Shown one piece after another: positions 16,349 through 35,831 of a DNA stretch of 64,000 bases. Each line of letters begins with the position of its first letter. Position 1 is the stretch's first letter. The notes under the pieces were generated by a model. The model was given only the letters and a program-made list of their open reading frames with translations. It was not told the DNA's origin and searched no databases. Source of the stretch: a virus (lineage: Duplodnaviria; Caudoviricetes); the IMG/VR virus record IMGVR_UViG_3300009709_000023, positions 1-64,000 of that record. One strand, written 5' to 3'. Both the position numbers and the translations under genes were made by a program.

Positions 16349-16675
16349 TTACAACTTTAATCCCGCAGTCTTTTGATGAATACGTTTTTCAAGATCTGAT
16401 TTTTCGTTATGATGGTGAACTGCTTCCAACGAACTCAAAATTCCTGCTGCAGCACCGAACTTACTACCAGCCGCCCTGCCGCCTAATCTTTTTAAAGCAC
16501 TGGATTCACCATGATGACCAGCATCAGATAAAGCTTCTCCGATTAATCCGCCACCTGCATAACCAAGAGCTCCAGAAACAGCGGCACCAAGAGCCGATCT
16601 ATTTGGGCTAATACGCTCCCTGGGCTCTTGGTTCTTTTCAGCAATTTTTTCTAAATATTTATTAGTCATTATCAA
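16349..16675 (-). CDS. NKYLEKIA-motif protein with Gly/Ala-rich hydrophobic segments
   Basis: MTNKYLEKIA N-terminus; GAAVSGALGYAGGGLIG. Confidence 0.8.
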   Translation of the reverse strand: MIMTNKYLEKIAEKNQEPRERISPNRSALGAAVSGALGYAGGGLIGEALSDAGHHGESSALKRLGGRAAGSKFGAAAGILSSLEAVHHHNEKSDLEKRIHQKTAGLKL

Positions 16676-17310
16676 CCAATGAGGAAATCAAGCAAAGGAT
16701 CGCCCTTCGGAGTAGGAATACCAGAACCAGACCCCATCGACGGCACAGAGTCAGTAATTGATGCAACTTTCTGAAGAACCGTTGGACTAATCAATTTCAG
16801 TTCTGCGAGGTCTTCATTAGTAAAAGCACCGGATTTATTTAACCGATCAATATGTTTTTCGGAAGCTCGTTTTTCAACAAATTTATCTTCCGACATTAAA
16901 GTAACGGCACGTTGTTCAGCAGCAGTTTTTTCAACCGCAAGTTTGTCAGCGCGACCTGATAAGAGTGTAGTTTCAGCTTCAAGAGCTTCAATATATTCAG
17001 CAGCTTTAACTAGCAATTCTGAATCATCTCCATCTTCTTGAGCGAAGGATTTGACATCAAACTTAGTCATTTCACGAATATTAATTCCCGCAGCCTTGAC
17101 AAGTTTGGCAGCTTCATGAACATCAACTCCCTTATCAACTAAAGCACGGGCGGCTTCTTTTTCCATCGTTTCTTGTGCAACAAGGTACTTAGCTTCAGTT
17201 TCATCGAAACCGGCTTGCTTAAGCATACCGACGGCGATGGTTTCCGGAGAGGTAGCTTTGAATTCTTCAGCTTTCTTGCGAAGGATGTCAGCGATTTGAG
17301 ACATGTTCAA
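16672..17310 (-). CDS. Putative scaffold/head-assembly protein
   Basis: Coiled-coil-like, many K-x-A sites, terminal PLLDFLIG. Confidence 0.5.
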   Translation of the reverse strand: MNMSQIADILRKKAEEFKATSPETIAVGMLKQAGFDETEAKYLVAQETMEKEAARALVDKGVDVHEAAKLVKAAGINIREMTKFDVKSFAQEDGDDSELLVKAAEYIEALEAETTLLSGRADKLAVEKTAAEQRAVTLMSEDKFVEKRASEKHIDRLNKSGAFTNEDLAELKLISPTVLQKVASITDSVPSMGSGSGIPTPKGDPLLDFLIG

Positions 17311-17562
17311 TTAATCCTTTTTCTTGTTAGGAATTACGCCGATGTCTTTTAGAGCACGGCTTTGCTGATGCTTATGCATCATATAACCAGTAGCAGCCAT
17401 TCCAACAGGGCCTAAAAGAGGGGCTCCTGCAACGGCTGCAAGGCCCGTTTTTACACCGGCCCAATTTTTAGAACGAGCCTTTTTATAAGCTTCGTGTTGT
17501 TCATCAGTTAAATCATAATCGCCAACTTGCTCAGCGATTTTTTCAAGATATTTATTTGTCAT
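17311..17562 (-). CDS. NKYLEKIA-motif small protein
   Basis: MTNKYLEKIAE; hydrophobic Gly/Ala segment. Confidence 0.8.
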   Translation of the reverse strand: MTNKYLEKIAEQVGDYDLTDEQHEAYKKARSKNWAGVKTGLAAVAGAPLLGPVGMAATGYMMHKHQQSRALKDIGVIPNKKKD

Positions 17563-17566
17563 ACCA

Positions 17567-17737
17567 TTAGTGCTTATGAGTTAAATATTCATCTGCAGCC
17601 ATACTGAGAGGGCCAACGATAGGAGAATTTGCAACTTCTTTAAGTCTATGTTTTGCCCCGGACTTATTTTTTGAATGAGTCTTTTTGCGATGCTTATCTT
17701 TGCTATGCTTCGCAATTTTTTCGAGGTATTTGTTCAT
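17567..17737 (-). CDS. NKYLEKIA-motif small basic protein
   Basis: ATG 17737 in a TAATG overlap; K/H-rich. Confidence 0.75.
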   Translation of the reverse strand: MNKYLEKIAKHSKDKHRKKTHSKNKSGAKHRLKEVANSPIVGPLSMAADEYLTHKH

Positions 17738-18273
17738 TACTTGTGATTCCATTTCTTCGCATTTTCAGCAAAGACAACTTCACGTTCAAGCTTTACATTT
17801 CCAGAAGCTTTAGCTCTGGATTTAGCGGAAGCTAAAGAACCTGAGCCGATCTTCTTATTTTGGGAAATGCCGAGTTTCTTATGGAGTAAGCCTTTGTTCT
17901 GCGGCTTGATATGGATACTAGACTTATTGTTTTTCTTGGCTTCTTTTTGCATGTTGCCATGAATCATGTTATTGATTTTCACAGCGCCGTAATCCAATGC
18001 GGTTCCCACGCCCATGCCAATACCAAGTAACTTACCATTTCGGCCAGTTACATGATCCATAAGTTTTCCACCAAATGTACGAGGAGCTTGTAATGCAGAT
18101 TTTTCAGCGGCGTGGATAAGACCTAGCTTTTGACCAATTCTGTCTGTAGCTAAAGTACCTAATCCACCAGCCCCTGCTGTGACAGCAGTTTGGGTTAGTT
18201 CTTGTTTTGTACTAGGGCCGCTATCATCAGGGATGATGCCAGCCGCAGCAATTTTTTCAAGGTACTTGTTCAT
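17737..18273 (-). CDS. NKYLEKIA-motif protein with a basic C-terminal domain
   Basis: MNKYLEKIAA; Gly-rich hydrophobic helices; basic tail after QKEA. Confidence 0.8.
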   Translation of the reverse strand: MNKYLEKIAAAGIIPDDSGPSTKQELTQTAVTAGAGGLGTLATDRIGQKLGLIHAAEKSALQAPRTFGGKLMDHVTGRNGKLLGIGMGVGTALDYGAVKINNMIHGNMQKEAKKNNKSSIHIKPQNKGLLHKKLGISQNKKIGSGSLASAKSRAKASGNVKLEREVVFAENAKKWNHK

Positions 18274-18292
18274 TCATGAATCCATTTAAAAA

Positions 18293-18312
18293 GGCCCCGA
18301 CTAGCGGGGCCC
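18293..18312 (-). terminator. Intrinsic terminator/hairpin after the scaffold gene
   Basis: GGCCCC(G)/(C)GGGGCC stem with an A-run on its left. Confidence 0.6.
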
Positions 18313-18331
18313 AAACCCATCCCGAGTTTAA

Positions 18332-19435
18332 TTACATACCGTAGAGTTCTTGCGACTTTTGATTGACGAGAGCAGCAGCAGTTGCGAAGTCAACACCTTG
18401 AGCGGTCAAGGCATTGAAAGCAGCCTTCTTCTCTTGGCCAACACGAGCAGCCATTGCACCAGCGGCAGCACCACCTGCAGCGGCAGCGCCCATACGAGCA
18501 GCAGGCTTAGAGGCGAGTGCCTTAGCACCTTGAGCAACAGTATTGCCAACCATGCCACCAACGCTCTTACCCATCAAGCCGAGATTAGCTTGCTTAACAA
18601 GAGTGACGGCTGAGTCAAAATCGACACCAGCAGCGATCAAATTATCAAGAGCAGCTTGTTTAATCTGGGAGACTTCTTCGCGTTGAATTTCTTCAGCGGC
18701 TGACTTAACCATGCTAACAGCATCGTCAAAACTGAAACCTTCTGAAACCAGGCTGTGGACAGCAGCAACCTTTTCAGCTTCGTCTTCGTTTTCGCTATAG
18801 GCCGATTGGGTGTTAACCTGATTCGGGGTAGCATGTTCTTCGCCGTTACCTTCATGAGCAGCCATGCCAGGAGCGCCCATACCTTGGTCAACGCTTGCTG
18901 CACCTTGCGACAATGTATCGGCAACGATACCGTCAAAAATTTGATTCAATGAACCACCACCGTTACCGATAGCGTTCTTAGTAGGCAAAGGTTTAATCTT
19001 TGCGTCATCTTCAGCGACCAGTTGGGCGCTGCCGACTTGTGCCTTGTTAGGCACTTGGCCTGCTACAATACCATTTTCGGTATTGCCATCACCGGCGTTA
19101 GCGATCTTTTGCAGGATCGCATCAGCGATTGCTGCACCAGCAGCGGCGGCTTGCTTATTCATAGAAGTTTCCTTGGTTTGCGTTTGGGCAGCAAAGCGTG
19201 CTGCAATTTCTTTAGCGAGGGCAGCACCCTTTTCGTGTGCTTCTTCGCATTCTTCGTCATCTTTTTCTTCTTTTTCGTTTTCGCCTTCAGCTTTCTTTAC
19301 TTCTTTTTCGCCTTTGCCGAAAAACGATTCAGCTTTTTCTTCATCCTTCTTCTCTTCCTTTTCAGTCTCTTCGCTTGCTTGCTTATTCAGACCTGCCGAG
19401 GCAGAGAGGGTATTGATGATGTCATCGAGGTTCAT
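18332..19435 (-). CDS. Probable prohead scaffold protein
   Basis: Acidic and Ala-rich, directly downstream of the protease, repeated K-x-A sites; ATG 19435 (MNLDDII) preferred. Confidence 0.6.
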   Translation of the reverse strand: MNLDDIINTLSASAGLNKQASEETEKEEKKDEEKAESFFGKGEKEVKKAEGENEKEEKDDEECEEAHEKGAALAKEIAARFAAQTQTKETSMNKQAAAAGAAIADAILQKIANAGDGNTENGIVAGQVPNKAQVGSAQLVAEDDAKIKPLPTKNAIGNGGGSLNQIFDGIVADTLSQGAASVDQGMGAPGMAAHEGNGEEHATPNQVNTQSAYSENEDEAEKVAAVHSLVSEGFSFDDAVSMVKSAAEEIQREEVSQIKQAALDNLIAAGVDFDSAVTLVKQANLGLMGKSVGGMVGNTVAQGAKALASKPAARMGAAAAGGAAAGAMAARVGQEKKAAFNALTAQGVDFATAAALVNQKSQELYGM

Positions 19436-19485
19436 CTTTAATCCTATATAAATGTTACTTAATCTTTGAAGAGCCAACCTTCAAA

Positions 19486-20976
19486 TCACCGGACATATTT
19501 ATTAATAGTGCGGATCGTATCGGCGGTCGAAAGACAGTAGGTAGAACGATAGTCAGACGACTTCTTCACTAAAACGATTTTAACCTCTCCATCAGGAGCA
19601 TTTTGCTCCTCTTGGATTTTTTCTTTGATAAGGGAGGTTATATACCACTTAGCTGCAAGCGCAGCAGCTCCTAAAGCAATAAGTCTAGAGAACAGGTTTG
19701 GCTTTTCAGTTTCGCCTTCTTCTTTCATTTTTCTTGCTAAAGCAGCTTCAAATTTTTCTGTTACAGTTGGCTCGATCTTAGGACCATTCCCGGAATAGCC
19801 AACGTTCGTACCTGGCATCCACATAACTGAAGACCGTTTTTCAACATATTCAGGAAGCATTGAAGATGCATGCACACTAGGAGCCAAGGCTACAGCAACT
19901 TCACGAAGTGGCCGGCCTTCCTGGTGTGAAAGTTCACTCGGAATATGTGAATGGACGTCCATTCCTTTTTCACCTAGAATACGTTCCACCTCTTTTCCAA
20001 TGCCTTTTAATTCATGCCCAAAATGTTTACGACCAATAATTTCAGCAAGAAAACCGACTGAAGGTGAAATACCCATAGACGCCATTGTTGTGAAAATGTC
20101 CTGAGGACTATGTACAAGAATGTCATCGATAGCGCGTTCTTCTGGGTCACGAACTTTATTTAGAATATCATCGAGTTGCCCGGATGTATCAACAACATGA
20201 CCGGCCTCGGCAATTTCTTTAACGAGTTCTGAAACTTTTTTATGGCCAGCAGTTTTTTCTTTAAGACCTTCTTGTTCCGCTCTTTCAGCCGAACCTATTG
20301 GGCACTCTTCAGAAGTAGACGCTAATTTTTGGAGGAACGAAGAAGTTGGATCAGCACCTTTATAAACGTAGCTGATATCATGGAAGCTTAAGGGCTTCTC
20401 ATTAATTGCGTAGACACGGCGGCCATCTGGATAAATATGACCTAGCTCTTGGCGGAGATGTTTACAATATTGGGCACGAGTTGAAGCAATATTGCCACAG
20501 ATACTACAAGTATCAGAAGCAACCTTACAAGCCATGGAAGTCGACGGGTACTCACCACGCTCAATTCTAGAAACTATATCACCGGCTCGTTTACGATCAA
20601 TCTCAACAACGAGTTCAACACGATGCATACGTTCATTGTAAATAGCAAAGATGACTTTACCCATTGCAATGGTTTTGTCTTTGTTTACATGATGCTTGAA
20701 AAAGTGTGCCGGGTTAGTTTCAAAAGTTTTATAACTACGAAGCAAATTTTCTTCAGGAAAATAATCGCAGTTTAAGTTGCATCCATAATATTCTGAAGCG
20801 CCCATAGCTAGAATATGGGCGTAAATTTTATCAGAAGATTGTTGTAGTTTTGATGCGTACTCAGAAATACGTAAATCTGCGGCTTGCTTAACAAGACCTT
20901 TTACGTTTTCTCTATCTATGATCCTGATGGAAGGTTCATCATAGAAATTATTCTGAATATCAAAAATTTTTAACAT
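19486..20976 (-). CDS. Prohead maturation protease
   Basis: FFKHHVNK, GKVIFA, VELVVEID, STSMACKV..DTCSICGN, FHDISYV..GADP: His/Ser arrangement of caudoviral prohead proteases; position upstream of scaffold and MCP. Confidence 0.7.
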   Translation of the reverse strand: MLKIFDIQNNFYDEPSIRIIDRENVKGLVKQAADLRISEYASKLQQSSDKIYAHILAMGASEYYGCNLNCDYFPEENLLRSYKTFETNPAHFFKHHVNKDKTIAMGKVIFAIYNERMHRVELVVEIDRKRAGDIVSRIERGEYPSTSMACKVASDTCSICGNIASTRAQYCKHLRQELGHIYPDGRRVYAINEKPLSFHDISYVYKGADPTSSFLQKLASTSEECPIGSAERAEQEGLKEKTAGHKKVSELVKEIAEAGHVVDTSGQLDDILNKVRDPEERAIDDILVHSPQDIFTTMASMGISPSVGFLAEIIGRKHFGHELKGIGKEVERILGEKGMDVHSHIPSELSHQEGRPLREVAVALAPSVHASSMLPEYVEKRSSVMWMPGTNVGYSGNGPKIEPTVTEKFEAALARKMKEEGETEKPNLFSRLIALGAAALAAKWYITSLIKEKIQEEQNAPDGEVKIVLVKKSSDYRSTYCLSTADTIRTINKYVR

Positions 20977-20982
20977 TACGAT

Positions 20983-21225
20983 TTAACTTTGATTTTCAAG
21001 GGTTTTGTGAATACCCTTTAAGGTTGACAAAGATTGTTCTTCCATACTAACTTTCTTCTCTTCTCGGCCTTCCCTGTGAAGACTCATACCGAGATTAGAA
21101 GCTCCCATGGCCAATCCGGTTCCGGACATACCAAAACCAAGCTGTTCAAGAGGAGTCATATTTTTAAACCCCTCTCTAAGTCCGGTCTTCCACCCAGCAA
21201 TTTTTTCGAGATAGCGATTAGCCAT
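20983..21225 (-). CDS. NRYLEKIA-motif small protein
   Basis: MANRYLEKIAG; Gly-rich hydrophobic segment. Confidence 0.75.
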   Translation of the reverse strand: MANRYLEKIAGWKTGLREGFKNMTPLEQLGFGMSGTGLAMGASNLGMSLHREGREEKKVSMEEQSLSTLKGIHKTLENQS

Positions 21226-21233
21226 GGCTTACC

Positions 21234-21728
21234 TTACATAAACATTTTAGGGCTGAATGCATTATTCTGCTGGTAACGACTTTCCAGTTCCGTCAGCATT
21301 TTGATAGTATCTGGAAATATACCATTGAAGTGAATCGCATTGCTTAAAACAGCACCAAGGACATTTGGATCGGCAGCAACCGAAGGGCTGAATTTAAAAA
21401 TAGTTTCGCCGTACTGAGCAAGCTTAGCTTTATCAGCATCATGGAGAACAGGATTTGATTTGATAGCAGCATCTAAAGCTGCTTGAAATCGAGCATGACT
21501 AGAATGGGCTTTAGAATCCATTAATCCTTTCCCAGCAAGGGCTACTCCTCCGCCAACCACTAAGGCACCTAAGCCTTTTCCAAGACCCCCAGCAAATTGT
21601 TTTGCCAGTTCATTAGATAACCGTCCCCAATCGGCAGCCTCTTTATAAAAACCTTCCACGAAAGCGGCGGCTTTCTTTTCATCCCCATCAAACTCTTTAA
21701 GTGCGTGAGCCGCAATTTTATCTAACAT
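21234..21728 (-). CDS. Putative virion protein
   Basis: MLDKIAA, YKEAA; Gly-rich hydrophobic helix. Confidence 0.7.
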   Translation of the reverse strand: MLDKIAAHALKEFDGDEKKAAAFVEGFYKEAADWGRLSNELAKQFAGGLGKGLGALVVGGGVALAGKGLMDSKAHSSHARFQAALDAAIKSNPVLHDADKAKLAQYGETIFKFSPSVAADPNVLGAVLSNAIHFNGIFPDTIKMLTELESRYQQNNAFSPKMFM

Positions 21729-21743
21729 GTTATTATCCGTAAA

Positions 21744-22766
21744 TTAGTGCAATGCTGACCAAACATCATTTGAAAGACCTGTTGTAGAATTAACACCCGG
21801 GTCGTAAGCCACAGCATCCAAAAGAGGTCCTGTTGCAAGGCCTCCAAGAGCTTTTGCATTTTTAGCTGCTGTAAGAGGTGCTTTGGCAACAGTCTTTACT
21901 ACCTTACCAATTCCTTTACCAATCACTGATCCAGCTTGTTGTCCAACATTTACAGGCTTGACTTGTGGAATCGTAGGACTTGGAGTTGAAGAACCAATTC
22001 CCATAAACGCTGCTTTCTTAACCAAGGGTTCCAGACGAGCATGATTGTTTTTACGTTCTTTCAACTCTTCAACAACGTTGCAAGCCTCTTTATGGAGAGA
22101 GGCAAGTGCTTTTACTTCACGAAGACTGGCTTCTTTAAACATATCGTAACTACCGAGATTACGATAGGTTTTAACATCGCCAGTAACGAGATATGAAAGT
22201 TGTGAGAATTGATTTTCGTCTGTTATAGAAGCTAGCTTATCCATAGCTACCGGATCCGCATTAACAAGTTTGGCTTGCTTGATCAACTTCTCAGCAAGAA
22301 TAGAACTATATCCGCTTAAATGTTCGAGATGTTTACGATTGGATTCATACTCAGTTTCCAATAGCTTGAACTGGGCTTCCTTAGATAAGCCAAGGATGTA
22401 TTCTGTTTCTGCAGCTTTCTTATCCATTGCCGTCTTCTCAAGATTCGGAGCCGAGGCTTGCACCTCTTTCTGGGCATCTGGTGTAGATGTTTTGGGAAGG
22501 CCATCTGGCAAAACCATATGGGCCAAAACTTCTTTGTAATTAGCGACTGGAAATTCAAAAGTTCTATCTTCTGCTTCACTCAACATCTTTAAATATGTGA
22601 TGTTATTTGTCGCTTCAATTGTTCGTTTAATTTGCTCAGAATTAAATCCATGAGCCGATGCTTCCTTGGCGATACCAACGCTCAAAGGAATTTTATCGTT
22701 AAGGAAACCTTCAACTGTTTTTACAGAGAGATTTCTAATGAGTTCGGAGTTAAAGTCAGGTACCAT
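21744..22766 (-). CDS. Putative virion/head protein
   Basis: 340 aa, many K-x-A sites, CTAAAATAC box 5 nt upstream of the ATG. Confidence 0.7.
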   Translation of the reverse strand: MVPDFNSELIRNLSVKTVEGFLNDKIPLSVGIAKEASAHGFNSEQIKRTIEATNNITYLKMLSEAEDRTFEFPVANYKEVLAHMVLPDGLPKTSTPDAQKEVQASAPNLEKTAMDKKAAETEYILGLSKEAQFKLLETEYESNRKHLEHLSGYSSILAEKLIKQAKLVNADPVAMDKLASITDENQFSQLSYLVTGDVKTYRNLGSYDMFKEASLREVKALASLHKEACNVVEELKERKNNHARLEPLVKKAAFMGIGSSTPSPTIPQVKPVNVGQQAGSVIGKGIGKVVKTVAKAPLTAAKNAKALGGLATGPLLDAVAYDPGVNSTTGLSNDVWSALH

Positions 22767-22788
22767 GTTGTGTATTTTAGTCTACAGG

Positions 22789-23493
22789 TTAGTCTGAACT
22801 AATCCCTGAAATAGGAGTTAGTTTCACCTCAGAAGTAAGAAGTTCTAGGTCGATTCCGAGATCTTCCTTAATCGTATCGAGTCCATCAAATTTAGGACGA
22901 ATATCCTCAAGAGCCAATTCAATGTCCCTACGAGCAGAATCTCCATCAAGCACCCATGCTTTAATAAGTCTAGCAAGGTCCGCTGATGTTTTAACCCACT
23001 TCACCGCTTCTTTGCTTGCGTCTGTTGAGTTAGCAGAGAATAGAGCTTCTTTAGATTTGTAGGTGGCAATTGTGAAAAGGTCATTTAGACCTTCAACGGG
23101 ATCAATACTCACAGCCCCGCCAATTCGCCATGTAATGAAGTCTAGGCCTTGAGATAGGGCCCAAGTTTTGAGCATTGATTCTTCTCGGTCTGTACTTTCT
23201 AAAAGCTCAAGACGGTCGAGATTATCCATCCCTTCTATGTCGTAGAAAATCTTTTGGTAGATTTCCAGGACAAAAGCAGGGATACCGAGAATATTGGAGA
23301 TTTTTGGAATATCAGTAGAAGCAAGAAAACACGCCTCAATATAGCGCTTTTTGACTATCTTATGACGCAAATCACAAGCCTTGTTAAAAGCCTGTTTTTC
23401 CGGGGAATCAGACTCGGACAGTATTTTGTCAACAAGTTCATCAACCCCGGTTTTCCTATCTCTGATTAAGACATACCGGTCACAAACTGCCAT
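22789..23493 (-). CDS. Hypothetical protein
   Basis: ATG 23493 just after the upstream stop codon. Confidence 0.7.
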   Translation of the reverse strand: MAVCDRYVLIRDRKTGVDELVDKILSESDSPEKQAFNKACDLRHKIVKKRYIEACFLASTDIPKISNILGIPAFVLEIYQKIFYDIEGMDNLDRLELLESTDREESMLKTWALSQGLDFITWRIGGAVSIDPVEGLNDLFTIATYKSKEALFSANSTDASKEAVKWVKTSADLARLIKAWVLDGDSARRDIELALEDIRPKFDGLDTIKEDLGIDLELLTSEVKLTPISGISSD

Positions 23494-23500
23494 ACTGGTA

Positions 23501-25444: not shown

Positions 25445-25493
25445 AGTTTAAATAGCTCGAAGCGACTTAGGGCCGCTAATAGTCCTTCTGATT

Positions 25494-26210
25494 TTAGCTT
25501 TCTTTTATTGTAACACATTCACAAGGCCAGCCTTGGCACTCAATACACCAATAATGACGCTTTGCTCTGTTTTTTGTACGCGTTAAAACTTGTAAATTAA
25601 ATTCATTGTGTAAGCCACAAACTAACCCATCTTTGTGTTGCAAAGGAATAATATGATCCACTTCATGTGGCTCCCCTGTTTTTTCTAAAAGTGCTTTAGA
25701 TTCTTTGTAGAATTCTTCTATTACTTCTTCATCCGCCCAGTCAACAAAAGCGTTTAATTCTACCGCCCGCCTCTTAGAATCTGCAAGAAGAAACCTCTCG
25801 GGGCACTCCTTCTTCATTCGTTCATAACTTTGTTTTTTTCTTATTCTAGCTTTTTCTTTGAAATCGGGATCATCTTTGTGTTCTTCATGGTACGCCCTGG
25901 ATCTCTCTGCTGCTCTAGCCCTGTATTCCGGGTCTAATCCATATTTATTATGAAATCGAGCTAATTTCTTAGCATTAATATTTGCCCTGTACATTTCATC
26001 TGTACATAATTTTTCAAGGTGTTTTTCGTACGCTATCTGGGCTTTACGTTTGTATTCTTCAGTATCTTTATGGGTTTCGTAATGACGCTGAGAAGCAGCT
26101 TTTTTTCTAGCTCGATAAGAAGGATCATCTTTTAATCTCTCATAACGTTTATGATCTTTTTCTTTTTGTTTAGCTTTACGTTCTTCTTCGGTTAAAACTT
26201 TACGTGGCAT
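25494..26210 (-). CDS. HNH homing endonuclease
   Basis: HEVDHIIPL..GLVCGLHNEFNLQVLT..KN; TTGACG-18-TATAAT upstream (26239-26268, minus). Confidence 0.85.
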   Translation of the reverse strand: MPRKVLTEEERKAKQKEKDHKRYERLKDDPSYRARKKAASQRHYETHKDTEEYKRKAQIAYEKHLEKLCTDEMYRANINAKKLARFHNKYGLDPEYRARAAERSRAYHEEHKDDPDFKEKARIRKKQSYERMKKECPERFLLADSKRRAVELNAFVDWADEEVIEEFYKESKALLEKTGEPHEVDHIIPLQHKDGLVCGLHNEFNLQVLTRTKNRAKRHYWCIECQGWPCECVTIKES

Positions 26211-26264
26211 ACATCAATCTAATGAAAATAAAGGATTGATTATACAATAAGAAGGAAACCTACG

Positions 26265-27062
26265 TCAACAACCCGGTGGAACCTGGTTATTCCCACTCGC
26301 AATATTCACAACTTGGCCAGAACTAGTAGTAGCAACGCTTGTTGCATTGCCAGAAACACCACCAGCCGCCGAACCATTAGCAAGCACATACATTTTTCCA
26401 TACAAAATATTACTGACGTATTGGTTTGGCGTCATACCGGTAGCTCTGTCATATCCCCCCAAGCCTAGATAAGCGCCAATTGAGGCTGCTATTTTGGAGC
26501 TAAAGTATTGACTAGAGTTACCATAGTGCCATCCACTTGAAGTTTGACTAATATGTTTGTATTTACTTTCAAGAATAGTCAGGCCCGCCAAAATTTGGTT
26601 AGAAGCGGTAGCCTGCCCTTGATACAAAGTAGTTAAGTCTGTTCCAGGTGGAACACAAAGAATACTGGCAATATCAGGTCTAGAGATTTGAATTTCAGTT
26701 TGGCCATTTTTTTTAGATGCCCCCTGAATAAAATTCCATCCCATACACTGCAAAAGTCCATAGGCTTGGAGGCCCTGAGCAACCAACGATTTTTGTGTGG
26801 GAGTGCCCGTTGCCAAAAGATTTTGAATCGGTTGACTATTCCAGTAATCCTTAGCCCCAGACGAAACAGACGTAGAAATAACAGGGCCAATAGCATTGTA
26901 GCTAAAAGAACTTTCCTGTTGGACCATAGCCATGACAATGTTAGCAATATTGCTTTCATTGTTTAAAGTAGAAGTGAAATATTGACCAAGCAGATTTGTT
27001 ATAATTGTCTTAACATTCTGCTTGGTAGTGGTCGTAGTACTTGATCCGGCAACCGACGCCAT
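26265..27062 (-). CDS. Lytic transglycosylase (SLT-like), probably virion-associated
   Basis: AMVQQESSF catalytic Glu, YGLLQ, IGAYLG. Confidence 0.75.
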   Translation of the reverse strand: MASVAGSSTTTTTKQNVKTIITNLLGQYFTSTLNNESNIANIVMAMVQQESSFSYNAIGPVISTSVSSGAKDYWNSQPIQNLLATGTPTQKSLVAQGLQAYGLLQCMGWNFIQGASKKNGQTEIQISRPDIASILCVPPGTDLTTLYQGQATASNQILAGLTILESKYKHISQTSSGWHYGNSSQYFSSKIAASIGAYLGLGGYDRATGMTPNQYVSNILYGKMYVLANGSAAGGVSGNATSVATTSSGQVVNIASGNNQVPPGC

Positions 27063-28888: not shown

Positions 28889-28958
28889 GCAAGTATTTTA
28901 GATCGGCATAGTTTTGGTATAAGTAAAGTAGAGAAGAACCCTATTTTAGGAGAATCCT

Positions 28959-29255
28959 ATGTTCTGTGCATTTCGTTGCCAATGGTTTGAAAAATCAGAC
29001 GGAGTAGAACAAGCAGATGGTTTTTCCTATGCATTTCGAAGGGATGATTTGGAGCTTTGGATTAAAACCCAAAGTAATCCAACATTCTCAGATGTGCTAC
29101 AATACAGGGCTAGCAAAGTTGAGCTTGTTCGTATAACTTCTGAACTTGCTGAAAATATCTTTAGGCATCGAGTTTTTAATTGCGGTCTTGAAAATGGGGA
29201 AGCCCCTGATCTTGGACTGTTATCAGAATATAAGGCTTCCCTTGGCATCAACTAA
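28959..29255 (+). CDS. Hypothetical protein
   Basis: AGGAG SD; after TGGTATAAG at 28915. Confidence 0.75.
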   Translation: MFCAFRCQWFEKSDGVEQADGFSYAFRRDDLELWIKTQSNPTFSDVLQYRASKVELVRITSELAENIFRHRVFNCGLENGEAPDLGLLSEYKASLGIN

Positions 29256-29382
29256 CTTCATCCCCGACATAATCACTAATCCTCTCACCAATTCCTCCGC
29301 CCCAACCCACCATTATACTTGGACTCGTGGGACCGGGTGGGGCGTTATTCCTGTAAACCCTTTTGATACAGAGAGAACTACC

Positions 29383-30837
29383 ATGGCGCAATCTACGTCT
29401 GCATCTGTCACCCCCGTTACTCCAGACCCGAATCGTCCGTATCGCCCGCCGTTGGTTGGAACTCCTGACGTTACTATTCAGTACATCTCGGGTCAAATCC
29501 AACGAACCAGGGCATCTTCGGGTCAAGAAATTATAGTGCTTTTGACTCGCTTCCTTGAATTCGCAACGGCTAGGCCAACAGGCAGTATGACTTACTCCAT
29601 GCTTGAACCTCCTCGTTGGCAGAATGCTGAAGAAGGATACCCTTTCGAATTGGTAATTTATGGTAATAATCTACCGGCGGATTTAGCAAGCACTCAACAG
29701 GCACTTCGCCTCCTGATCAGCGGCTGTCCGGATATGATCTTTTCCAACACCATGGAAGGTCCGTCTGGAGAAAGCTCAATACCGAATATTTTCTTTACAC
29801 CCGGTAGAGTCAAGTTCCTTCAAAACTTGGAGATTTTTGATACTCCATGTGGATTCGGTCTGAAGGGAAATTTCATGCTTAGGCGGTCGGCTACCAGGTA
29901 TTACGCCTACCCTTTCAAGGTTCATATTGTTAAGTTATCAGACCAATCTTTGCAATTGTTTCACAGTCATATTGCGTTTAGTGGAGATCTGGAGAAGCTC
30001 ATAGACAAAATGCTGGAGTACTGGGACCTAAAACTTGACAGAAGCATGATGGGGGCCGATTATTCGTCTCTTTCTATGAACTATGATGGAGAAGATGTTT
30101 TTCTTACCCGTGGAAATTCTGTAATGAATTTTCTGCCCAACATTACTACTTCTATGTTTAGCGGCCTTTCGACAGAAGCGATTGTTAATTGTCTCAAAAC
30201 CCTGAGGTTTTGCACGTCCGAGTCTTTGATTTACGCCCTGGGAAAGTTAGAACCAAACAACCAACTACGTAAAGCAATTAGCACTCAGGTCAGTGGAAAT
30301 ACTGTACGTGGTGCTGACTATCACTATCCGTCCCCCCTAGATGAAGAAGCCAGACGAGAGGGGTTTAAAACATGGCTCGTTAGTTTGCTTCAGCAACGTT
30401 CCTTAGGCCCTCGTAATTTGCACGAGGATCCTGCCATGAAATGGGGCCTGGGGTATATCTCTGAATTGGAAAGGAGCAAGCAAACGGTCGGTGTCGTTGA
30501 AAACCGAATCAGTAACGCCGTCGGTAAAGAGGTATATAATAAGTTGGTAACACCGAAGTCCAAATTGGCGGTATTGGACGAGTACATCGCCCGTATCGAA
30601 GCTCAAGGTCTGGATTTCATGCACATCTCTGAAGGCCGGCTCGAACTTGATTTCATCGAGTTTGCTCAAGAAAAAGGCTTACCACTTCCTGATGAAGTCA
30701 TAAACAAGGAAGAATTGGTTAGCAAACCTGAAGAGAAAGCTTCGATGCTACTCGTTGAAGCTGGAAGTAGCACTAAGTGTGATGTTAAGGATAACCCGGC
30801 TCCAATATGGGGTAAGGTTAAGGTAAGCGCCATTTAG
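29383..30837 (+). CDS. Hypothetical protein (~484 aa)
   Basis: Long ORF; ATG 29383 with GAGAG upstream preferred over the overlapping TTG start. Confidence 0.75.
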   Translation: MAQSTSASVTPVTPDPNRPYRPPLVGTPDVTIQYISGQIQRTRASSGQEIIVLLTRFLEFATARPTGSMTYSMLEPPRWQNAEEGYPFELVIYGNNLPADLASTQQALRLLISGCPDMIFSNTMEGPSGESSIPNIFFTPGRVKFLQNLEIFDTPCGFGLKGNFMLRRSATRYYAYPFKVHIVKLSDQSLQLFHSHIAFSGDLEKLIDKMLEYWDLKLDRSMMGADYSSLSMNYDGEDVFLTRGNSVMNFLPNITTSMFSGLSTEAIVNCLKTLRFCTSESLIYALGKLEPNNQLRKAISTQVSGNTVRGADYHYPSPLDEEARREGFKTWLVSLLQQRSLGPRNLHEDPAMKWGLGYISELERSKQTVGVVENRISNAVGKEVYNKLVTPKSKLAVLDEYIARIEAQGLDFMHISEGRLELDFIEFAQEKGLPLPDEVINKEELVSKPEEKASMLLVEAGSSTKCDVKDNPAPIWGKVKVSAI

Positions 30838-30862
30838 GAAGAGCTGTCTGAAGTAAAATAAG

Positions 30863-30898
30863 AGCTAGGCCTGATGTATTTACGGCCTAGCTTTTTTT
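30863..30898 (+). terminator. Intrinsic terminator
   Basis: AGCTAGGCC/GGCCTAGCT stem followed by a T-run. Confidence 0.75.
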
Positions 30899-30915
30899 AG
30901 TTTTTCTCACTCACG

Positions 30916-32826
30916 ATGCCCTACGAAACTGCCCATCCGGTTGAACATGAACATCAGCTCAAACCTGGGACTGAAATTCTGTTTACCCGTCAACGCCATG
31001 AAGCTGAGCGTATGGGCTTACATTGGGATTACCGACTGGTAGTTGGGAATTTAGCTTACAGTTGGGCTACTAAAAAACCAATGCCAGAGCCAGGTAAAAG
31101 CATCGTTCTCTTTGAGCAACCGATTCATGACAAAGACTATGCCCTGAGTCCAAAAGTTGTTATCCCTACTGGTAGTTATGGTGCTGGTGTTACTTACCTT
31201 GACTTTGTACGCAAAGCAAAGATCGGGGACAGTAGCACACAAAAACAAATGACAATCGTCACCCATGACGGTGAGAAGTATTTGCTAAAGCATATTCCTG
31301 ATACTCAATGGGGAGAGAAAGCTTGGTTGTTCCGTAATCTTGGGACAACAGGTAATAAGTATTTGGAAAAGGCTGCTAAGCAAACACAGACTCAAAAACA
31401 AACTCCTCTTCAACCGCATCAAATTCGTGCGCTTGAAAAGTTGGAAGATGAGGGTGGTCTTGTAATGAATCACAGCACGGGCTCAGGGAAAACCCGAGTT
31501 ATGCTTGAGGCTATTCGCCGCGCCCAACAAAAAGATAAAAACGCAAGAGTATTTATGGCTACGCCAGCTTCATTACTACATAACGTAGATAAAGAAATTA
31601 AAAAGCATGGCATCCCCATTGATAAAAAGCGACTCGACTTATATTCATTCCAGAAAGCGACTAGAAATGCAGATCAGCTTCGTAAAAATAAATACGCATT
31701 AGCAGTCGTGGACGAAGCCCATGGTCTCCGCAATGAAAGCACAAAGCGAACCCAAGAACTTCGAGACATTATAGAAGGATCTGATCAACGTCTTTTAGCT
31801 ACTGCAACGTCTAACTACAATGCTATTAGCGATATGTCAACTTTGGTTAACATTGCCGCTGCTGATAAAGTGTTGCCTGAATCTAAGCGAGATATGTATG
31901 ATAAATATGTGGAGACCTACAAAAAGCCTCGGGGACTCATCAGCACCATTTTACGTCATCAAGCCGACGAAGGCCAGCGGTTGAGAAACAAAAAGAAACT
32001 TCAGAGTGTCCTGGGTAAATACGTTGATTATTATGATACTAAGGACTCCGCTAATGGCCGTAGCCATTTCCCTAAAAAGACAGAGGAAACAATTGAAACG
32101 GAAATGTCTCCTGAACAAATGAAGTATTACAAATACGTTGAAGGAGACTTGCCTCTTTTACTTAAATTTAAAATTCGTCACAATCTTCCATTGGATAAAA
32201 AGGAAAAGGCAAGCTTAAATAGTTTCTCCACAGGGGTGCGCCAAGCCTCCAATTCGTATAGGCATTTGCATCAGCATGGGGAAGATCTGCCGTACACACC
32301 AAAAATTGAAGCCGCTACTAAAAAACTTCAAGAAGCGATTAAGGCTAACCCACGCCATAAAGCCTTGGTGTATTCTAATTATCTTGACGCCGGTTTGAAC
32401 GAATACTCCAACAAGCTTAATAAACTTGGGATTAAGCACGGTAAATACACAGGGGAACTTTCCAAGGAAGAGAAGCATAAACTAGTCGAAGATTACAACA
32501 AAGGTAAGCTTCCAGTGATGCTCATTTCTTCAAGTGGTTCTGAAGGTCTTGACACGAAAGGTACAAGGCAAATTCAAATTCTTGAACCGCATTTTAACAA
32601 GAGCAAAATTAAGCAGGTAATTGGTCGTGGAGTTCGTTACAATTCCCATGAGCATTTACCAGAAAAAGAAAGAGAGGTTCATGTTGAACATTATCTTTCA
32701 ACATATCCTAAGAGTCATTTCGGTAAAACGCCTTATAGTATTGATAAATATTTGAGTGAAAATGCTGAAGACAAAGACGAACTATTTAACGAAGTAAACG
32801 GACTAATGCGTGAGAACAATGAATAA
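30916..32826 (+). CDS. LigD-type 3'-phosphoesterase domain fused to a SNF2-family helicase
   Basis: QRH...LHWDYRL...SWA...H..DY...IP.GSYGAG (LigD PE); HSTGSGKT, DEAH, TAT, SEGLD, QVIGRGVR (SF2); internal NKYLEKAA at the junction. Confidence 0.85.
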   Translation: MPYETAHPVEHEHQLKPGTEILFTRQRHEAERMGLHWDYRLVVGNLAYSWATKKPMPEPGKSIVLFEQPIHDKDYALSPKVVIPTGSYGAGVTYLDFVRKAKIGDSSTQKQMTIVTHDGEKYLLKHIPDTQWGEKAWLFRNLGTTGNKYLEKAAKQTQTQKQTPLQPHQIRALEKLEDEGGLVMNHSTGSGKTRVMLEAIRRAQQKDKNARVFMATPASLLHNVDKEIKKHGIPIDKKRLDLYSFQKATRNADQLRKNKYALAVVDEAHGLRNESTKRTQELRDIIEGSDQRLLATATSNYNAISDMSTLVNIAAADKVLPESKRDMYDKYVETYKKPRGLISTILRHQADEGQRLRNKKKLQSVLGKYVDYYDTKDSANGRSHFPKKTEETIETEMSPEQMKYYKYVEGDLPLLLKFKIRHNLPLDKKEKASLNSFSTGVRQASNSYRHLHQHGEDLPYTPKIEAATKKLQEAIKANPRHKALVYSNYLDAGLNEYSNKLNKLGIKHGKYTGELSKEEKHKLVEDYNKGKLPVMLISSSGSEGLDTKGTRQIQILEPHFNKSKIKQVIGRGVRYNSHEHLPEKEREVHVEHYLSTYPKSHFGKTPYSIDKYLSENAEDKDELFNEVNGLMRENNE

Positions 32827-33802
32827 GTATTTAGAAAAAATTGCAGAAGATGATGAAGAAAAAAAGCCGGTGAATGCCTTTGGAAAACTTGGGATAGGTT
32901 ACTTAGGGGCTTCTCTTGGACTCGGTGCGAGTGTCGTTACAAATAAACCTTTGACAAGGGATATCATACATCAAAGTAACAACGAGCATGGTATTTCTGA
33001 CCATGGTACTGTCAAGAAATTTATGCGAGATAATAACTTTAATAAGCATAATATGACGTTGAATCATCGTATGCATATTACGAAAAAACTTCCTGAGAGT
33101 TTCCAGTATCTTCATCAAAATCACCATAGTCCCGCAGAGCTTACTGATCCCCATACAGGCAGACATATTCTGTTAGGTATGAGGGATAAAAAAACCGGAA
33201 AACTTCGTAATTTAGATGTTGCAATGCATGAACTTGGTCATGCTAAAGATTTCCGCACGCATACTGAACTAAAGCATAAAGCACAGATTATTGGAAATAC
33301 TAAAGGTAATCATGCAGCTATGTTGGGAGTCGCTGCAATGTCCAACGAAGACACTAGACACTACGCTCCTCTTGTCGCTGCCGTTCCGGGTGCTATTGTC
33401 CTTCGTTCGGAAGCTGCGGCAAATTATCATGCTTATCATGGTATTAAAGCTCACAAAGGAGCTAAGGCGGCAAATAAATTTTTAACTCGTATGGTTCCTA
33501 AACAAATGGCAGGGTATGTTGCAGGAACTCTCGGCCCTGCGGCTGGTTTATATGGTGCCAATAAACTTATTGACTATGTTCATAAAAAGCGTGGTATTGA
33601 TAAGCAAGCTGAAATGTCCGACATGGAAGCCGCTCGTGAATTTCATCATGCTGAAGAAGATGATGTCAAGAAATACGAAGAGGCTAAAAAGACGGCAAAA
33701 AATCCTAAGCTATTAAAGGCTATTAACTATGCCCTTCCAGAAGAAAAGATCCATGCTCGTTTGTTTGGTGAAGCATTGAAAGACGAAGAAAAAAGTGAAT
33801 AA
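32819..33802 (+). CDS. NKYLEKIA-motif protein with an HExxH zincin motif and a ferritin-like C-terminal module
   Basis: MNKYLEKIAE; AMHELGH...SEAAAN; after DKQA: EFHHAEEDD..KY...EEKIH. Confidence 0.75.
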   Translation: MNKYLEKIAEDDEEKKPVNAFGKLGIGYLGASLGLGASVVTNKPLTRDIIHQSNNEHGISDHGTVKKFMRDNNFNKHNMTLNHRMHITKKLPESFQYLHQNHHSPAELTDPHTGRHILLGMRDKKTGKLRNLDVAMHELGHAKDFRTHTELKHKAQIIGNTKGNHAAMLGVAAMSNEDTRHYAPLVAAVPGAIVLRSEAAANYHAYHGIKAHKGAKAANKFLTRMVPKQMAGYVAGTLGPAAGLYGANKLIDYVHKKRGIDKQAEMSDMEAAREFHHAEEDDVKKYEEAKKTAKNPKLLKAINYALPEEKIHARLFGEALKDEEKSE

Positions 33803-33959
33803 GTATCTTGAAAAGCTTGCAGTAAGACTCCATTTATACGTTCATTCTCAAGATGAAACTAAGAAGAGGTGGGTGGAGGAAGGAAAGTCTGTTCCAGAAG
33901 GATATGTAAAGGCTGGTCCTACTTTCTATCGCCGCAAAGGTCAAGGTAAAAAGAAATGA
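33795..33959 (+). CDS. 54-aa NKYLEKLA-motif basic protein (not in ORF track)
   Basis: GTG start, MNKYLEKLAV...RRKGQGKKK, coupled at both ends. Confidence 0.7.
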   Translation: MNKYLEKLAVRLHLYVHSQDETKKRWVEEGKSVPEGYVKAGPTFYRRKGQGKKK

Positions 33960-34873
33960 ATTTGATTTCCAGAAAAGAAGCTAAAGCGCAAGGATTAAAA
34001 TTTTATTTCACTGGTAAACCATGCAAGCACCGGCATGTTTGTCCTAGACGCGTTTCTAGCAAGTGCTGTACAGGCTGTGAAAAACAGTTTTATGATAAAA
34101 ACAAAACTGAAATACTAAAGTCACGAGTTGAATATTCTAAACGCAATAAAAATAAAATTTCTGAATACCAAAAGAAATATCGAGAAAACAACAAAAATAG
34201 AACTTCCGAATATCTAACTGACTATTTTCAAAAAAATAAAGAAGAAATTTACCTTCAGCGTCGTCAATATATAGAAAGAAATAAAGCCTATTTTTTTAAC
34301 TGGCATTCTGAATATAGAGAAAAACATAGAGACATATTCAATGTTCGTTCATCGATAAGAAGGGCTATTAAATTACAGGCAATACCTACTTGGGCAAATA
34401 AAACAGAAATACATGAATTTTATAAAGATGCAGTTCGTATAAGTTATGAAACTGGTGTTAAATACAATGTTGATCATATTGTCCCATTACAATCAGATTT
34501 TGTTTGTGGATTACACTGGGAAGGAAATTTGCAAATTCTAACAAAAACTGAAAATCTCTCAAAAAGCAATAGACATTGGCCTGACATGCCAGATACTTCT
34601 GACCCAGAAATTAAACACTTAGTAAAACAATTTAAAAAAATGAATAAATATTTATCAAAAATAGCAGAAGCATATGATGTTGTAGAAGGTAATAACGGGG
34701 CGTCTATTGGTCGAAAAGGCGGCTCTACTCTAGATGGTAAAGACCAAAAAACAACTCCTGCCTCTGTACGTAACAGAATGCTCGAAGCTGGGAGGGCCAG
34801 TGATCCGGACCAACCTGTAAATATGGGTTCAGTGACTGGTGGCTATAGCGATCCAGGCATTCTGGGCTCCTAA
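33956..34873 (+). CDS. HNH homing endonuclease, in-frame with a downstream motif protein
   Basis: YFTGKPCKHRH, NVDHIVPL..DFVCGLHWEGNLQILT..EN. Confidence 0.8.
   Translation: MNLISRKEAKAQGLKFYFTGKPCKHRHVCPRRVSSKCCTGCEKQFYDKNKTEILKSRVEYSKRNKNKISEYQKKYRENNKNRTSEYLTDYFQKNKEEIYLQRRQYIERNKAYFFNWHSEYREKHRDIFNVRSSIRRAIKLQAIPTWANKTEIHEFYKDAVRISYETGVKYNVDHIVPLQSDFVCGLHWEGNLQILTKTENLSKSNRHWPDMPDTSDPEIKHLVKQFKKMNKYLSKIAEAYDVVEGNNGASIGRKGGSTLDGKDQKTTPASVRNRMLEAGRASDPDQPVNMGSVTGGYSDPGILGS
34640..34873 (+). CDS. 77-aa NKYLSKIA-motif protein nested in the HNH 3' end
   Basis: In-frame ATG 34640 begins MNKYLSKIAE. Confidence 0.6.
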   Translation: MNKYLSKIAEAYDVVEGNNGASIGRKGGSTLDGKDQKTTPASVRNRMLEAGRASDPDQPVNMGSVTGGYSDPGILGS

Positions 34874-34883
34874 AAATAAGATC

Positions 34884-35831
34884 ATGAACAAATACTTGAC
34901 CAAATTGGCTAGTGACGGAATTATCAAAACCGAACATGGTGAAAAAATTCCTTATGAGCGCCACAAATATGTGGAGAAAGATTGGTCACATCTAGAAAAT
35001 CCTGTCGGGTCTAATAAATTCGATGGGGCTCATTTCTTTTTAGTTGTTCAACCAGACGGAACATTTAAGTATTATTCCCGTAGAGAGAGCGTTAAGGGGC
35101 ATCATCCTGAACGTTCTGCTCAAATTCCTCATCTCAACGCCAAGCCTTTGCCTGAATACGCTGGTGATGTGCTCTCTACAGAGTTGATCCATACTGGCTT
35201 TTATAAGAACAAGAAAGAATCCCACCCAAAAGTATCAGGGATTCTGAATTCTCTCAAGGACCGGGCTATTGCAACTCAAAAAGAAACTGGTCCCGTCCGT
35301 GCCGTCCTCCTAGATGTCAAGGATCATAACCTTCCAACTTTCGGATCGAAGATTGATTACCTAAAAAAGTTTGAACAAGCATATGGTAATTCAGACGTCC
35401 TTTACACCCCTAAATTTGTTGAGGGCAAAGAAAACATCAACAAGTACCTTCAGCAAGTTTCGTCTAAAGGCAGCGAAGGTATCATCGTAACAGATAAGAA
35501 TATTCCTGAATCAGAGAACGTTCGTTACAAAGTTAAAAACTACAATACTTATAACTTGAAGGTTATCGGGTTTCAACAAGAAGTAGACATTCATGGTAAT
35601 CTTAAAAAGTCCATGGGTGCCCTCCTCCTGGCCGACGCGACTGGACGGTTCGTTGGCAAAGTCGGAACAGGATTTGATCGTAAGACACGGATAGAATCCT
35701 GGAATAATCAACCCCTTTGGATTGGTCGGCAAATCCAAGTTAAAGCATATCCACCTAGTAAACATATGGGTCATATCCGTTTTCCTATTTATAACGGTGA
35801 ACCTGATGGTCAACTTGACACAATAATTTAG
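34884..35831 (+). CDS. ATP-dependent DNA ligase with an NKYLTKLA N-terminus
   Basis: KFDG adenylation motif, SEGIIV, YKVK, OB-fold VGKVGTGF. Confidence 0.9.
   Translation: MNKYLTKLASDGIIKTEHGEKIPYERHKYVEKDWSHLENPVGSNKFDGAHFFLVVQPDGTFKYYSRRESVKGHHPERSAQIPHLNAKPLPEYAGDVLSTELIHTGFYKNKKESHPKVSGILNSLKDRAIATQKETGPVRAVLLDVKDHNLPTFGSKIDYLKKFEQAYGNSDVLYTPKFVEGKENINKYLQQVSSKGSEGIIVTDKNIPESENVRYKVKNYNTYNLKVIGFQQEVDIHGNLKKSMGALLLADATGRFVGKVGTGFDRKTRIESWNNQPLWIGRQIQVKAYPPSKHMGHIRFPIYNGEPDGQLDTII

Follow-up and report, generated by a model that had tools for sequence, protein, structure and literature searches.

An octapeptide repeated on unrelated proteins of an Arash-like phage: a candidate capsid-address tag ending in a putative prohead protease site

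The first 64 kb (hereafter the window) of a single 82,861-bp contig of 42% G+C, IMG/VR virus record IMGVR_UViG_3300009709_000023 (Caudoviricetes), encode ten copies of an eight-residue peptide, N-[KR]-Y-L-x-K-[ILA]-A, carried by largely unrelated proteins. The repetition itself is confirmed and is highly non-random. The reading which we favour and consider probable is that this octapeptide is a capsid-address tag ending in the cut site of the head protease, a non-homologous functional analogue of phage T4's capsid targeting sequence. Such a tag would be composite, with an N-K-Y part followed by a putative protease site. A T4-like modular N-terminal tag had been suggested by an original prediction made from the nucleotide sequence alone. 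A gp21-fold protease, an [LM]xKxA motif enriched in head proteins and an abundant helicase in virions of Salmonella phage Arash speak for that idea, while it has to be amended in that the tag is composite and not strictly N-terminal and in that the tagged enzymes are encoded on the other strand.

Copies of the octapeptide and their spread among related phages

The whole contig was scanned in six frames with the pattern [NS][KR]Y[LIM]xK[ILAVM]A, using 100 shuffles as a control. Exactly ten copies of N-[KR]-Y-L-x-K-[ILA]-A were found, all of them within 16.3-35 kb and in real coding frames, and none in any of the shuffles. All the tag sites listed in the original prediction exist, and the genome-wide scan and homologue comparison proposed with it as checks gave these ten copies and recurrence of the tag in relatives. 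Eight of the ten sit one or two codons past an ATG or GTG, on the minus strand at 16669, 17562, 17737, 18273 and 21225 and on the plus strand at 32819, 33795 and 34884. The copy at 31354 is truly internal and is preceded by a Gly codon, and the copy at 34640 has its own ATG, yet lies in frame within a longer open reading frame (ORF). The tagged genes of the window are listed below (aa, amino acids).

16349..16669, minus strand: Gly-rich small tagged protein, 106 aa, with a Gly-rich uncharged segment; tag codons at 16640-16663
17311..17562, minus strand: small tagged protein, 83 aa, paralogue of 17567..17737
17567..17737, minus strand: strongly basic tagged peptide, 56 aa, net charge +0.17 per residue
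17737..18273, minus strand: Gly-rich/basic tagged protein, 178 aa, belonging to the largest tagged family (20 members)
20983..21225, minus strand: tagged protein, 80 aa, NRYLEKIA variant, directly upstream of the protease gene
30916..32826, plus strand: LigD_N 3'-phosphoesterase domain (about aa 1-146), internal tag at 31354-31377, then SNF2 helicase (Pfam, PHROG)
32819..33802, plus strand: tagged HELGH (zincin-motif) protein with a Gly-rich segment; motif conserved in homologues
33795..33959, plus strand: tagged basic peptide, 54 aa, GTG start
34640..34873, plus strand: tagged 77-aa product, in frame with the upstream HNH homing-endonuclease ORF 33956-34873
34884..35831, plus strand: tagged ATP-dependent DNA ligase (phrog_114, E 1.6e-21)

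The codons of the tag vary among copies at nearly every synonymous position (AAT/AAC, AAA/AAG/CGC, TTA/TTG/CTT/CTC, ATT/ATC/ATA and GCT/GCA/GCG), one copy has Arg in place of Lys (20983-21225), and the DNA upstream of the copies is not conserved. Because synonymous codons differ and the upstream DNA is unlike, selection maintains the repeat as a peptide and not as DNA. On the same grounds we rejected a repeat acting at the DNA or RNA level, such as a promoter or a translation enhancer. A partial tag, MLDKIA at 21728, which the original prediction had also counted, was dropped from the set since its final Ala varies in orthologues.

The sequences that follow the tag are unrelated, as had been predicted, except that the products of 17311 and 17567 are paralogues of each other. 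The predicted kinds of cargo (Gly-rich, basic, zincin-motif, helicase, ligase) were borne out by Pfam and PHROG matches and by conservation of the HELGH and KxDG motifs; in 452-aa homologues of the ligase both KxDG and the tag are conserved. Orthologues of 20983-21225 retain the tag at 32-45% overall identity. No match for the small tagged proteins was obtained in Pfam, NCBIfam and PDB sequence searches. The head module contains half of the tagged genes.

The HNH ORF at 33956-34873 (plus strand) has paralogues at 25494-26210 (minus) and 13243-14211 (plus), and the pentapeptides VCGLH and TGKPC recur 4-5 times in the contig. No stop codon separates it from the next tagged gene, into which it reads in frame; the paralogue at 25494-26210 terminates without a tagged tail.

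By capsid protein, the closest cultured phage is Arash (53% identity, 181 kb), and Vibrio phages D69, D181 and D148 come next (48%). Among 25 IMG/VR loci found via the capsid protein (54-71% identity), 20 have 2-8 tagged ORFs each, always on the strand of the capsid gene. A scan of IMG/VR with the back-translated tag pattern returned 95 stretches, with 142 exact in-frame tag copies in 94 loci; a start lies within three codons in 125 of these 142 (88%). In the control, 596 Gb of prokaryote genomes gave 115 single matches in unrelated taxa with the same pattern, 68 of them in frame, 11 of which (16%) have a start within three codons, and never two copies per locus. Since the viral copies are start-linked and multiple while the prokaryote ones are scattered and single, the tag is, judging by these scans, a property of this phage clade. 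No host clue came from the prokaryote-genome scan, in which matches were scattered, single and mostly internal. All loci together contain 183 distinct tagged ORFs, which form at least 77 clusters at BLAST E<1e-4, and in a forced alignment of 44 representatives the tag columns alone are conserved. Our literature search found no paper on the NKY-tag peptide.

The prohead protease and the [LM]xKxA motif of head proteins

The genes of the head module that bear on the tag are the following.

14899..15792, minus strand: major capsid protein (phrog_2522), with a conserved G-[LMH]-x-K-E-A at aa 25-30
16672..17310, minus strand: head-module protein with six [LM]xKxA sites; the site at aa 179 is kept in 15 of 15 homologues
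18332..19477, minus strand: scaffold-like protein, acidic and Ala-rich, with five [LM]xKxA sites
19486..20976, minus strand: prohead protease (phrog_18299), gp21-fold domain at about aa 14-207
21744..22766, minus strand: head-module protein with eight [LM]xKxA sites

The protease was identified by PHROG and a fold search alone, as Pfam, NCBIfam and PDB sequence searches did not identify it. Its model (AlphaFold, 14 homologues) has a confident N-terminal domain, and model residues 14-207 match T4 gp21 (5jbl) with Z 11.4 and a root-mean-square deviation of 3.0 A over 142 of 166 residues; herpesvirus assemblins are the next fold matches, with Z 6-8. Residues H54, H96 and S147, possible catalytic residues, are invariant in the 14 homologues. 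The protease may cleave itself at aa 28-32 and aa 215-219, and a third, degenerate candidate site is found near aa 470. The site directly after the protease domain is kept in 16 of 16 homologues including Arash, and all three candidates fall in linkers flanking folded parts, with a predicted local distance difference test score (pLDDT) <50. We also observed that Cys150, Cys157, Cys160, Cys171 and His173, within residues 150-173, are invariant in the 14 homologues and give a weak zinc-ribbon match (Pfam E 0.07); the gp21-fold domain may contain a zinc-binding insert.

The final five residues of the tag match [LM]-x-K-x-A, and looser relatives of the tag were found inside the protease, the scaffold-like protein and two further head proteins. 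In the 14 head-module genes, [LM]xKxA was observed 30 times versus 4.0 expected by shuffling (maximum 10 in 300 shuffles); the tagged enzyme block has 5 versus 1.25 expected, and the remaining 88 genes have 8 versus 9.5. When about 48,000 three-residue gapped patterns were ranked in head proteins with the tags deleted, L.K.A came first (17 versus 2.5, p 2e-9) and M.K.A second, and no E-based pattern was among the top enriched patterns of these proteins. Across 13 related loci the motif occurs 440 times on the head side versus 50 expected, and 23 times on the tail side versus 15. In Vibrio phage D69 eight sites fall in the scaffold-like protein and none in tail proteins, and in Arash 10 of 27 matches lie within 8.5 kb of the head module. 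Alignments show that the sites are positionally conserved across the clade, including Arash. In Arash the capsid protein gp226 has G-L-V-K-E-A near residue 30 and the protease gp222 has V-L-E-K-V-A, and gp220, gp223 and gp225 contain sites as well. The conserved site at aa 25-30 of the capsid protein could possibly mark the boundary of an N-terminal propeptide. Another match in this protein, at aa 105, was set aside as probably no site, since it lies within the conserved fold and its Ala is not conserved.

Within the tag, N, K/R and Y are conserved as strongly as L-x-K-x-A, while the internal sites of head proteins have no such upstream preference. Because N-K-Y is conserved in the tag and absent at internal sites, there should be a second constraint beyond the putative cut site, and by this comparison the NKY extension is likely to be a binding determinant. 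In locus L020 (16746-18035, plus strand; capsid protein 54% identical; relatives are referred to here by L numbers), three consecutive small Gly-rich proteins start with M-[NS]-x-L-L-K-[LI]-A and not with the NKY tag, and D69 has one protein with an early L-L-E-K-I-A. As these two have the short variant without NKY, the bare N-terminal site seems to be older, with the NKY extension a later, fixed addition. As a separate observation, LxKxA occurs in the first 13 residues of D69 VPHD69_0279 (OZ195729 161560-162015) and of Arash gp95c (OQ632216 54867-55253), the latter detected in virions. No other repeated N-terminal peptide was found in Arash by k-mer counting.

Cargo families, tag placement and expression class

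Among the 77 tagged clusters, 41 are of 100 residues or fewer, 29 have a strongly basic composition and a Gly-rich uncharged segment is present in 49; of 83 background genes, 5 are strongly basic and 10 Gly-rich. Pfam searches of the tagged families returned Gly-zipper domains, SNF2 helicases, a DnaJ domain and a weak PARP-like match. The last belongs to a tagged 434-aa protein of L087 (6690-7991, minus strand), in the family of window gene 20983-21225, with a PARP/ADP-ribosyltransferase match of E 3e-4, below the Pfam cut-off. T4 Alt is a capsid-targeted ADP-ribosyltransferase, and the match, if real, would be a parallel to it.

The tagged helicase, ligase and HELGH families recur with the tag in many relatives. 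In these the helicase carries the tag at its true N-terminus, and HELGH homologues lie inside the head module, adjoining the protease gene, in L066, L083, L087 and L101. Residues 165-627 of the window helicase are 41% identical to Arash gp217. In purified Arash virions this protein gave 38 unique peptides and 1148 spectra, which places it with the most abundant proteins, beside the RNA polymerase subunits (PMC10585845). As 116 virion proteins were reported in that study (PMC10585845), some carry-over among them is likely, though gp217 ranks near the top. Peptide-level data were sought in its supplement, which holds an annotation table only.

The phosphoesterase domain never carries an N-terminal tag, and in relatives a tag or a site nearly always comes after it. 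A C-terminal tag with three residues after it is found in L052 and L068, a tag and a basic peptide in L095 and L073, a variant tag and a Gly-zipper protein in L043, L094 and L053, and a tag and a helicase in this phage and L072. In several relatives two or three tags occur within one ORF, and a Met precedes each of them. The tag, as placed in these ORFs, is therefore not strictly N-terminal and also occurs as an internal linker and at the C-terminus. Fusion of unrelated modules at the tag would be easily understood if the junction were cut after assembly, and it suggests that the upstream module could ride in on its partner's tag.

The gene order of the head module, including the protease amid scaffold and capsid genes, is the same as in Arash gp216-gp226 (gp218-gp226 for the neighbourhood of the protease). 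The minus strand holds the major capsid protein, the head maturation protease, scaffold-like proteins and the C-terminal part of an RNA polymerase beta' subunit at 14.9-28.9 kb, and further polymerase pieces and a portal-like gene at 37-45 kb. The plus strand encodes thymidylate synthase, replication helicases, homing endonucleases and a reverse transcriptase. The contig has no terminal repeat, and a nucleotide search gave no match among GenBank phages; since relatives reach 130-190 kb, it is probably a partial genome. A 265-aa protein (26265-27062, minus strand), encoded between the polymerase beta' piece and the head genes, has a weak lytic-transglycosylase (SLT) match with E 0.07. It is kept at the same position in L094, L095 and L101, and in Arash this spot is occupied by the helicase gene.

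A promoter-like motif, TGGTATAA[GC], often followed by a purine-rich A/G stretch, occurs 15 times in the contig versus about 0.6 times expected by chance. Within the window it lies at 301, 3305, 11368, 12786, 14255, 28915, 35849, 45224, 46228, 52016, 54185 and 61989, and further along the contig at 64688, 66566 and 74485. Every copy lies between genes on the plus strand, in front of early-type, non-structural operons (thymidylate synthase, helicases, reverse transcriptase), and none is found at the minus-strand head and virion genes. The site ahead of the plus-strand block that holds the tagged enzymes is the following.

28915..28923, plus strand: promoter-like TGGTATAAG site

Strand and promoter class, as read from these positions, separate two gene sets. 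With the enzyme block on the other strand and behind another promoter type, co-expression with the head genes is not to be assumed.

Readings of the tag, known systems and significance

Under the capsid-address reading, the tagged proteins would end up inside the phage head and the octapeptide would be a short linear address-and-processing tag. N-K-Y most likely would bind a component of the prohead core, either the scaffold or the protease, with uptake during prohead assembly. L-E-K-I-A would be recognized by the gp21-type prohead protease. The bond following the Ala of [LM]-x-K-x-A may be where this enzyme cuts the scaffold-like proteins, itself (within its linkers) and the capsid protein near its N-terminus. 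After assembly the protease would clip the tag and, at the phosphoesterase-tag-helicase junction, separate the modules. The clipped cargo, comprising small basic peptides, Gly-zipper proteins, the zincin-like protein, the phosphoesterase, the SNF2 helicase and the DNA ligase, would stay in the head and leave with the DNA. Cleavage and its exact bond, the targeting role and ejection are all inferred from the sequence relationships above.

Several observations weigh against this reading. Five of the tagged genes (30.9-35.8 kb) are read from the plus strand and follow a TGGTATAAG site, and the head genes, on the minus strand, have none, so tagged enzymes and head genes may differ in the timing of their expression; proteins made early could still be there when proheads form. 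Arash packages its helicase without an NKY tag and the polymerase subunits of the present phage are untagged, so that proteins must have some way of entering the head besides the tag. The NKY tag is absent from the cultured phages Arash and D69. Directly behind the tag, the residue differs from copy to copy (S 39, E 28, A 24, G 17, K 17 and L 15; n=183), while S or A dominates at internal head sites, and the position of the cut relative to the motif is itself an inference. Finally, the related loci are non-independent samples.

The nearest alternative is that the tag is a processing site only, with entry brought about by Gly-rich or basic protein bodies or by binding to polymerase or DNA, and with no address function. 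Here, too, the tagged proteins would be head-internal. The match of the last five tag residues to the head-protein motif would fit such a role, as would packaging of the orthologous, NKY-less helicase by Arash, and polyprotein-like fusions require just a cut site. Yet N-K-Y is as conserved as L-x-K-x-A and absent from internal head sites, which points to the second constraint described above; removal of nine residues has no obvious purpose by itself, and the C-terminal tags of L052 and L068 have only three residues after them. We therefore regard a pure processing site as unlikely, though it deserves more weight than the remaining alternatives. A rather improbable one is that the tag is an uncleaved docking peptide, a short amphipathic helix whose partner would be the capsid inner surface (comparable to encapsulin cargo peptides), the portal or a non-capsid hub such as the phage polymerase, its likeness to the motif being secondary. 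Its position independence, the variable residue after it and the different expression class of the tagged enzymes all suit docking, but exact overlap with the top motif of the head module in a phage with a gp21-type protease would then be a coincidence, and without cutting it is less easy to see why unrelated modules are fused at the tag.

We give very little credence to a tag unrelated to the capsid, whether a membrane or secretion-type leader for Gly-zipper proteins or a leftover of ancestry or recombination among paralogues. It is true that 49 of 77 tagged families are Gly-rich and uncharged, with Pfam Gly-zipper matches, and that 17311 and 17567 are paralogous. The tag, however, is made of eight mostly polar residues, and the hydrophobic core of Sec, Tat or lipoprotein-type signal peptides (about 7-15 residues after a basic N-region) is not present in it. 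It also heads a soluble helicase, ligase and phosphoesterase, the genes are located in the head module, and the tag is invariant at 54-71% capsid-protein identity while the sequences behind it form at least 77 unrelated clusters.

In T4, internal proteins IPI, IPII, IPIII and Alt bear the capsid targeting sequence, which the prohead protease gp21 takes off (Mullaney and Black 1996, cited after PMC7411985 and PMC3012670) and which terminates in the protease motif (PMC7411985, PMC3012670). The gp21-type proteases of T4 and SPN3US cut scaffold, capsid, internal proteins and themselves at one short motif (PMC7411985). Like the T4 sequence, the present tag is a peptide of about ten residues on otherwise unrelated proteins, it ends in the presumed cut motif of a protease which the phage encodes with a gp21 fold, and its cargo, which is diverse and changes fast while the tag stays constant, has both small basic proteins and enzymes among its members. 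It differs in having no sequence similarity to the T4 tag (taken by description), in a presumed rule of [LM]-x-K-x-A instead of hydrophobic-x-Glu (Glu follows 28 of 183 tags, about 15%), and in its occurrence in an Arash-like and not a T4-like clade. It also has far more cargo families (at least 77 in the clade), occurs in internal and C-terminal positions, has a helicase, a ligase and a phosphoesterase among its cargo, and is known from sequence alone.

The protease gp245 of the phiKZ-like giant phage SPN3US cuts after A-x-E (PMC7411985), and the propeptides of such phages have been proposed to target proteins into the prohead (PMC7411985). In these phages, as is presumed here, a gp21-related protease acts on many of the proteins inside the head and trims away its own C-terminal part, and a virion-packaged multisubunit RNA polymerase is shared with the present clade (Arash). 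Their propeptides, in contrast, are about 110-130 residues long and protein-specific, with no shared octapeptide and another cut motif. In phage P1 an N-terminal signal of DarB is enough to bring a large enzyme, or a reporter, into the capsid and have it delivered along with the DNA, and its authors reported no consensus among Dar proteins (PMC9024508). This signal resembles the proposed address tag in its N-terminal position and its packaging role, but it has 30 residues, no link to a protease site and a single known cargo.

Encapsulin cargo-loading peptides are short conserved terminal peptides which send unrelated cargo into an HK97-fold shell; usable at either end or in fusions, they bind the shell directly and stay uncleaved, with no protease or DNA packaging involved. 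The present tag resembles them as a short peptide of flexible placement on unrelated cargo and would differ in being cleaved, in its protease and in DNA packaging. Herpesvirus assemblins cut at maturation and release sites of the form (V/L/I)-x-A followed by Ser; these sites are few and are not known to serve as a portable tag. They share with the motif described here a protease of the same fold superfamily and a small Ala at the presumed P1 position, often followed by Ser, and differ from it in that here Lys stands two residues and Leu or Met four residues before the Ala.

The present case stands out by its non-T4 clade, by a motif based on Lys and Ala, by the tag's flexible placement and by DNA-repair enzymes among the cargo. 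A wider picture, which we hold tentatively and at less than even confidence, is that Arash-like phages independently evolved a portable, position-independent capsid-address peptide together with a protease of Lys/Ala rule, and use them to load and co-inject a large, rapidly exchanged cargo. This cargo would include a complete DNA end-repair set (3'-phosphoesterase, SNF2 helicase and ATP-dependent ligase), membrane-active Gly-zipper proteins and cleavable cargo polyproteins. If true, the tag would reliably mark injected proteins in uncultured phages and serve as a handle for protein delivery; with only eight residues and an apparent tolerance of N-terminal, internal and C-terminal placement, it is attractive for loading phage heads. 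A simple sequence rule would then flag proteins which travel in the capsid and enter the host, in at least 77 families, most of them otherwise unannotated. The "address plus clip" principle of T4 would have arisen again with another peptide and another protease specificity, which would help to define what such a tag requires. Finally, these phages would deliver a phosphoesterase, a helicase and a ligase along with the virion RNA polymerase, and such delivery of repair enzymes would bear on how phage DNA survives host nucleases in the first minutes of infection.

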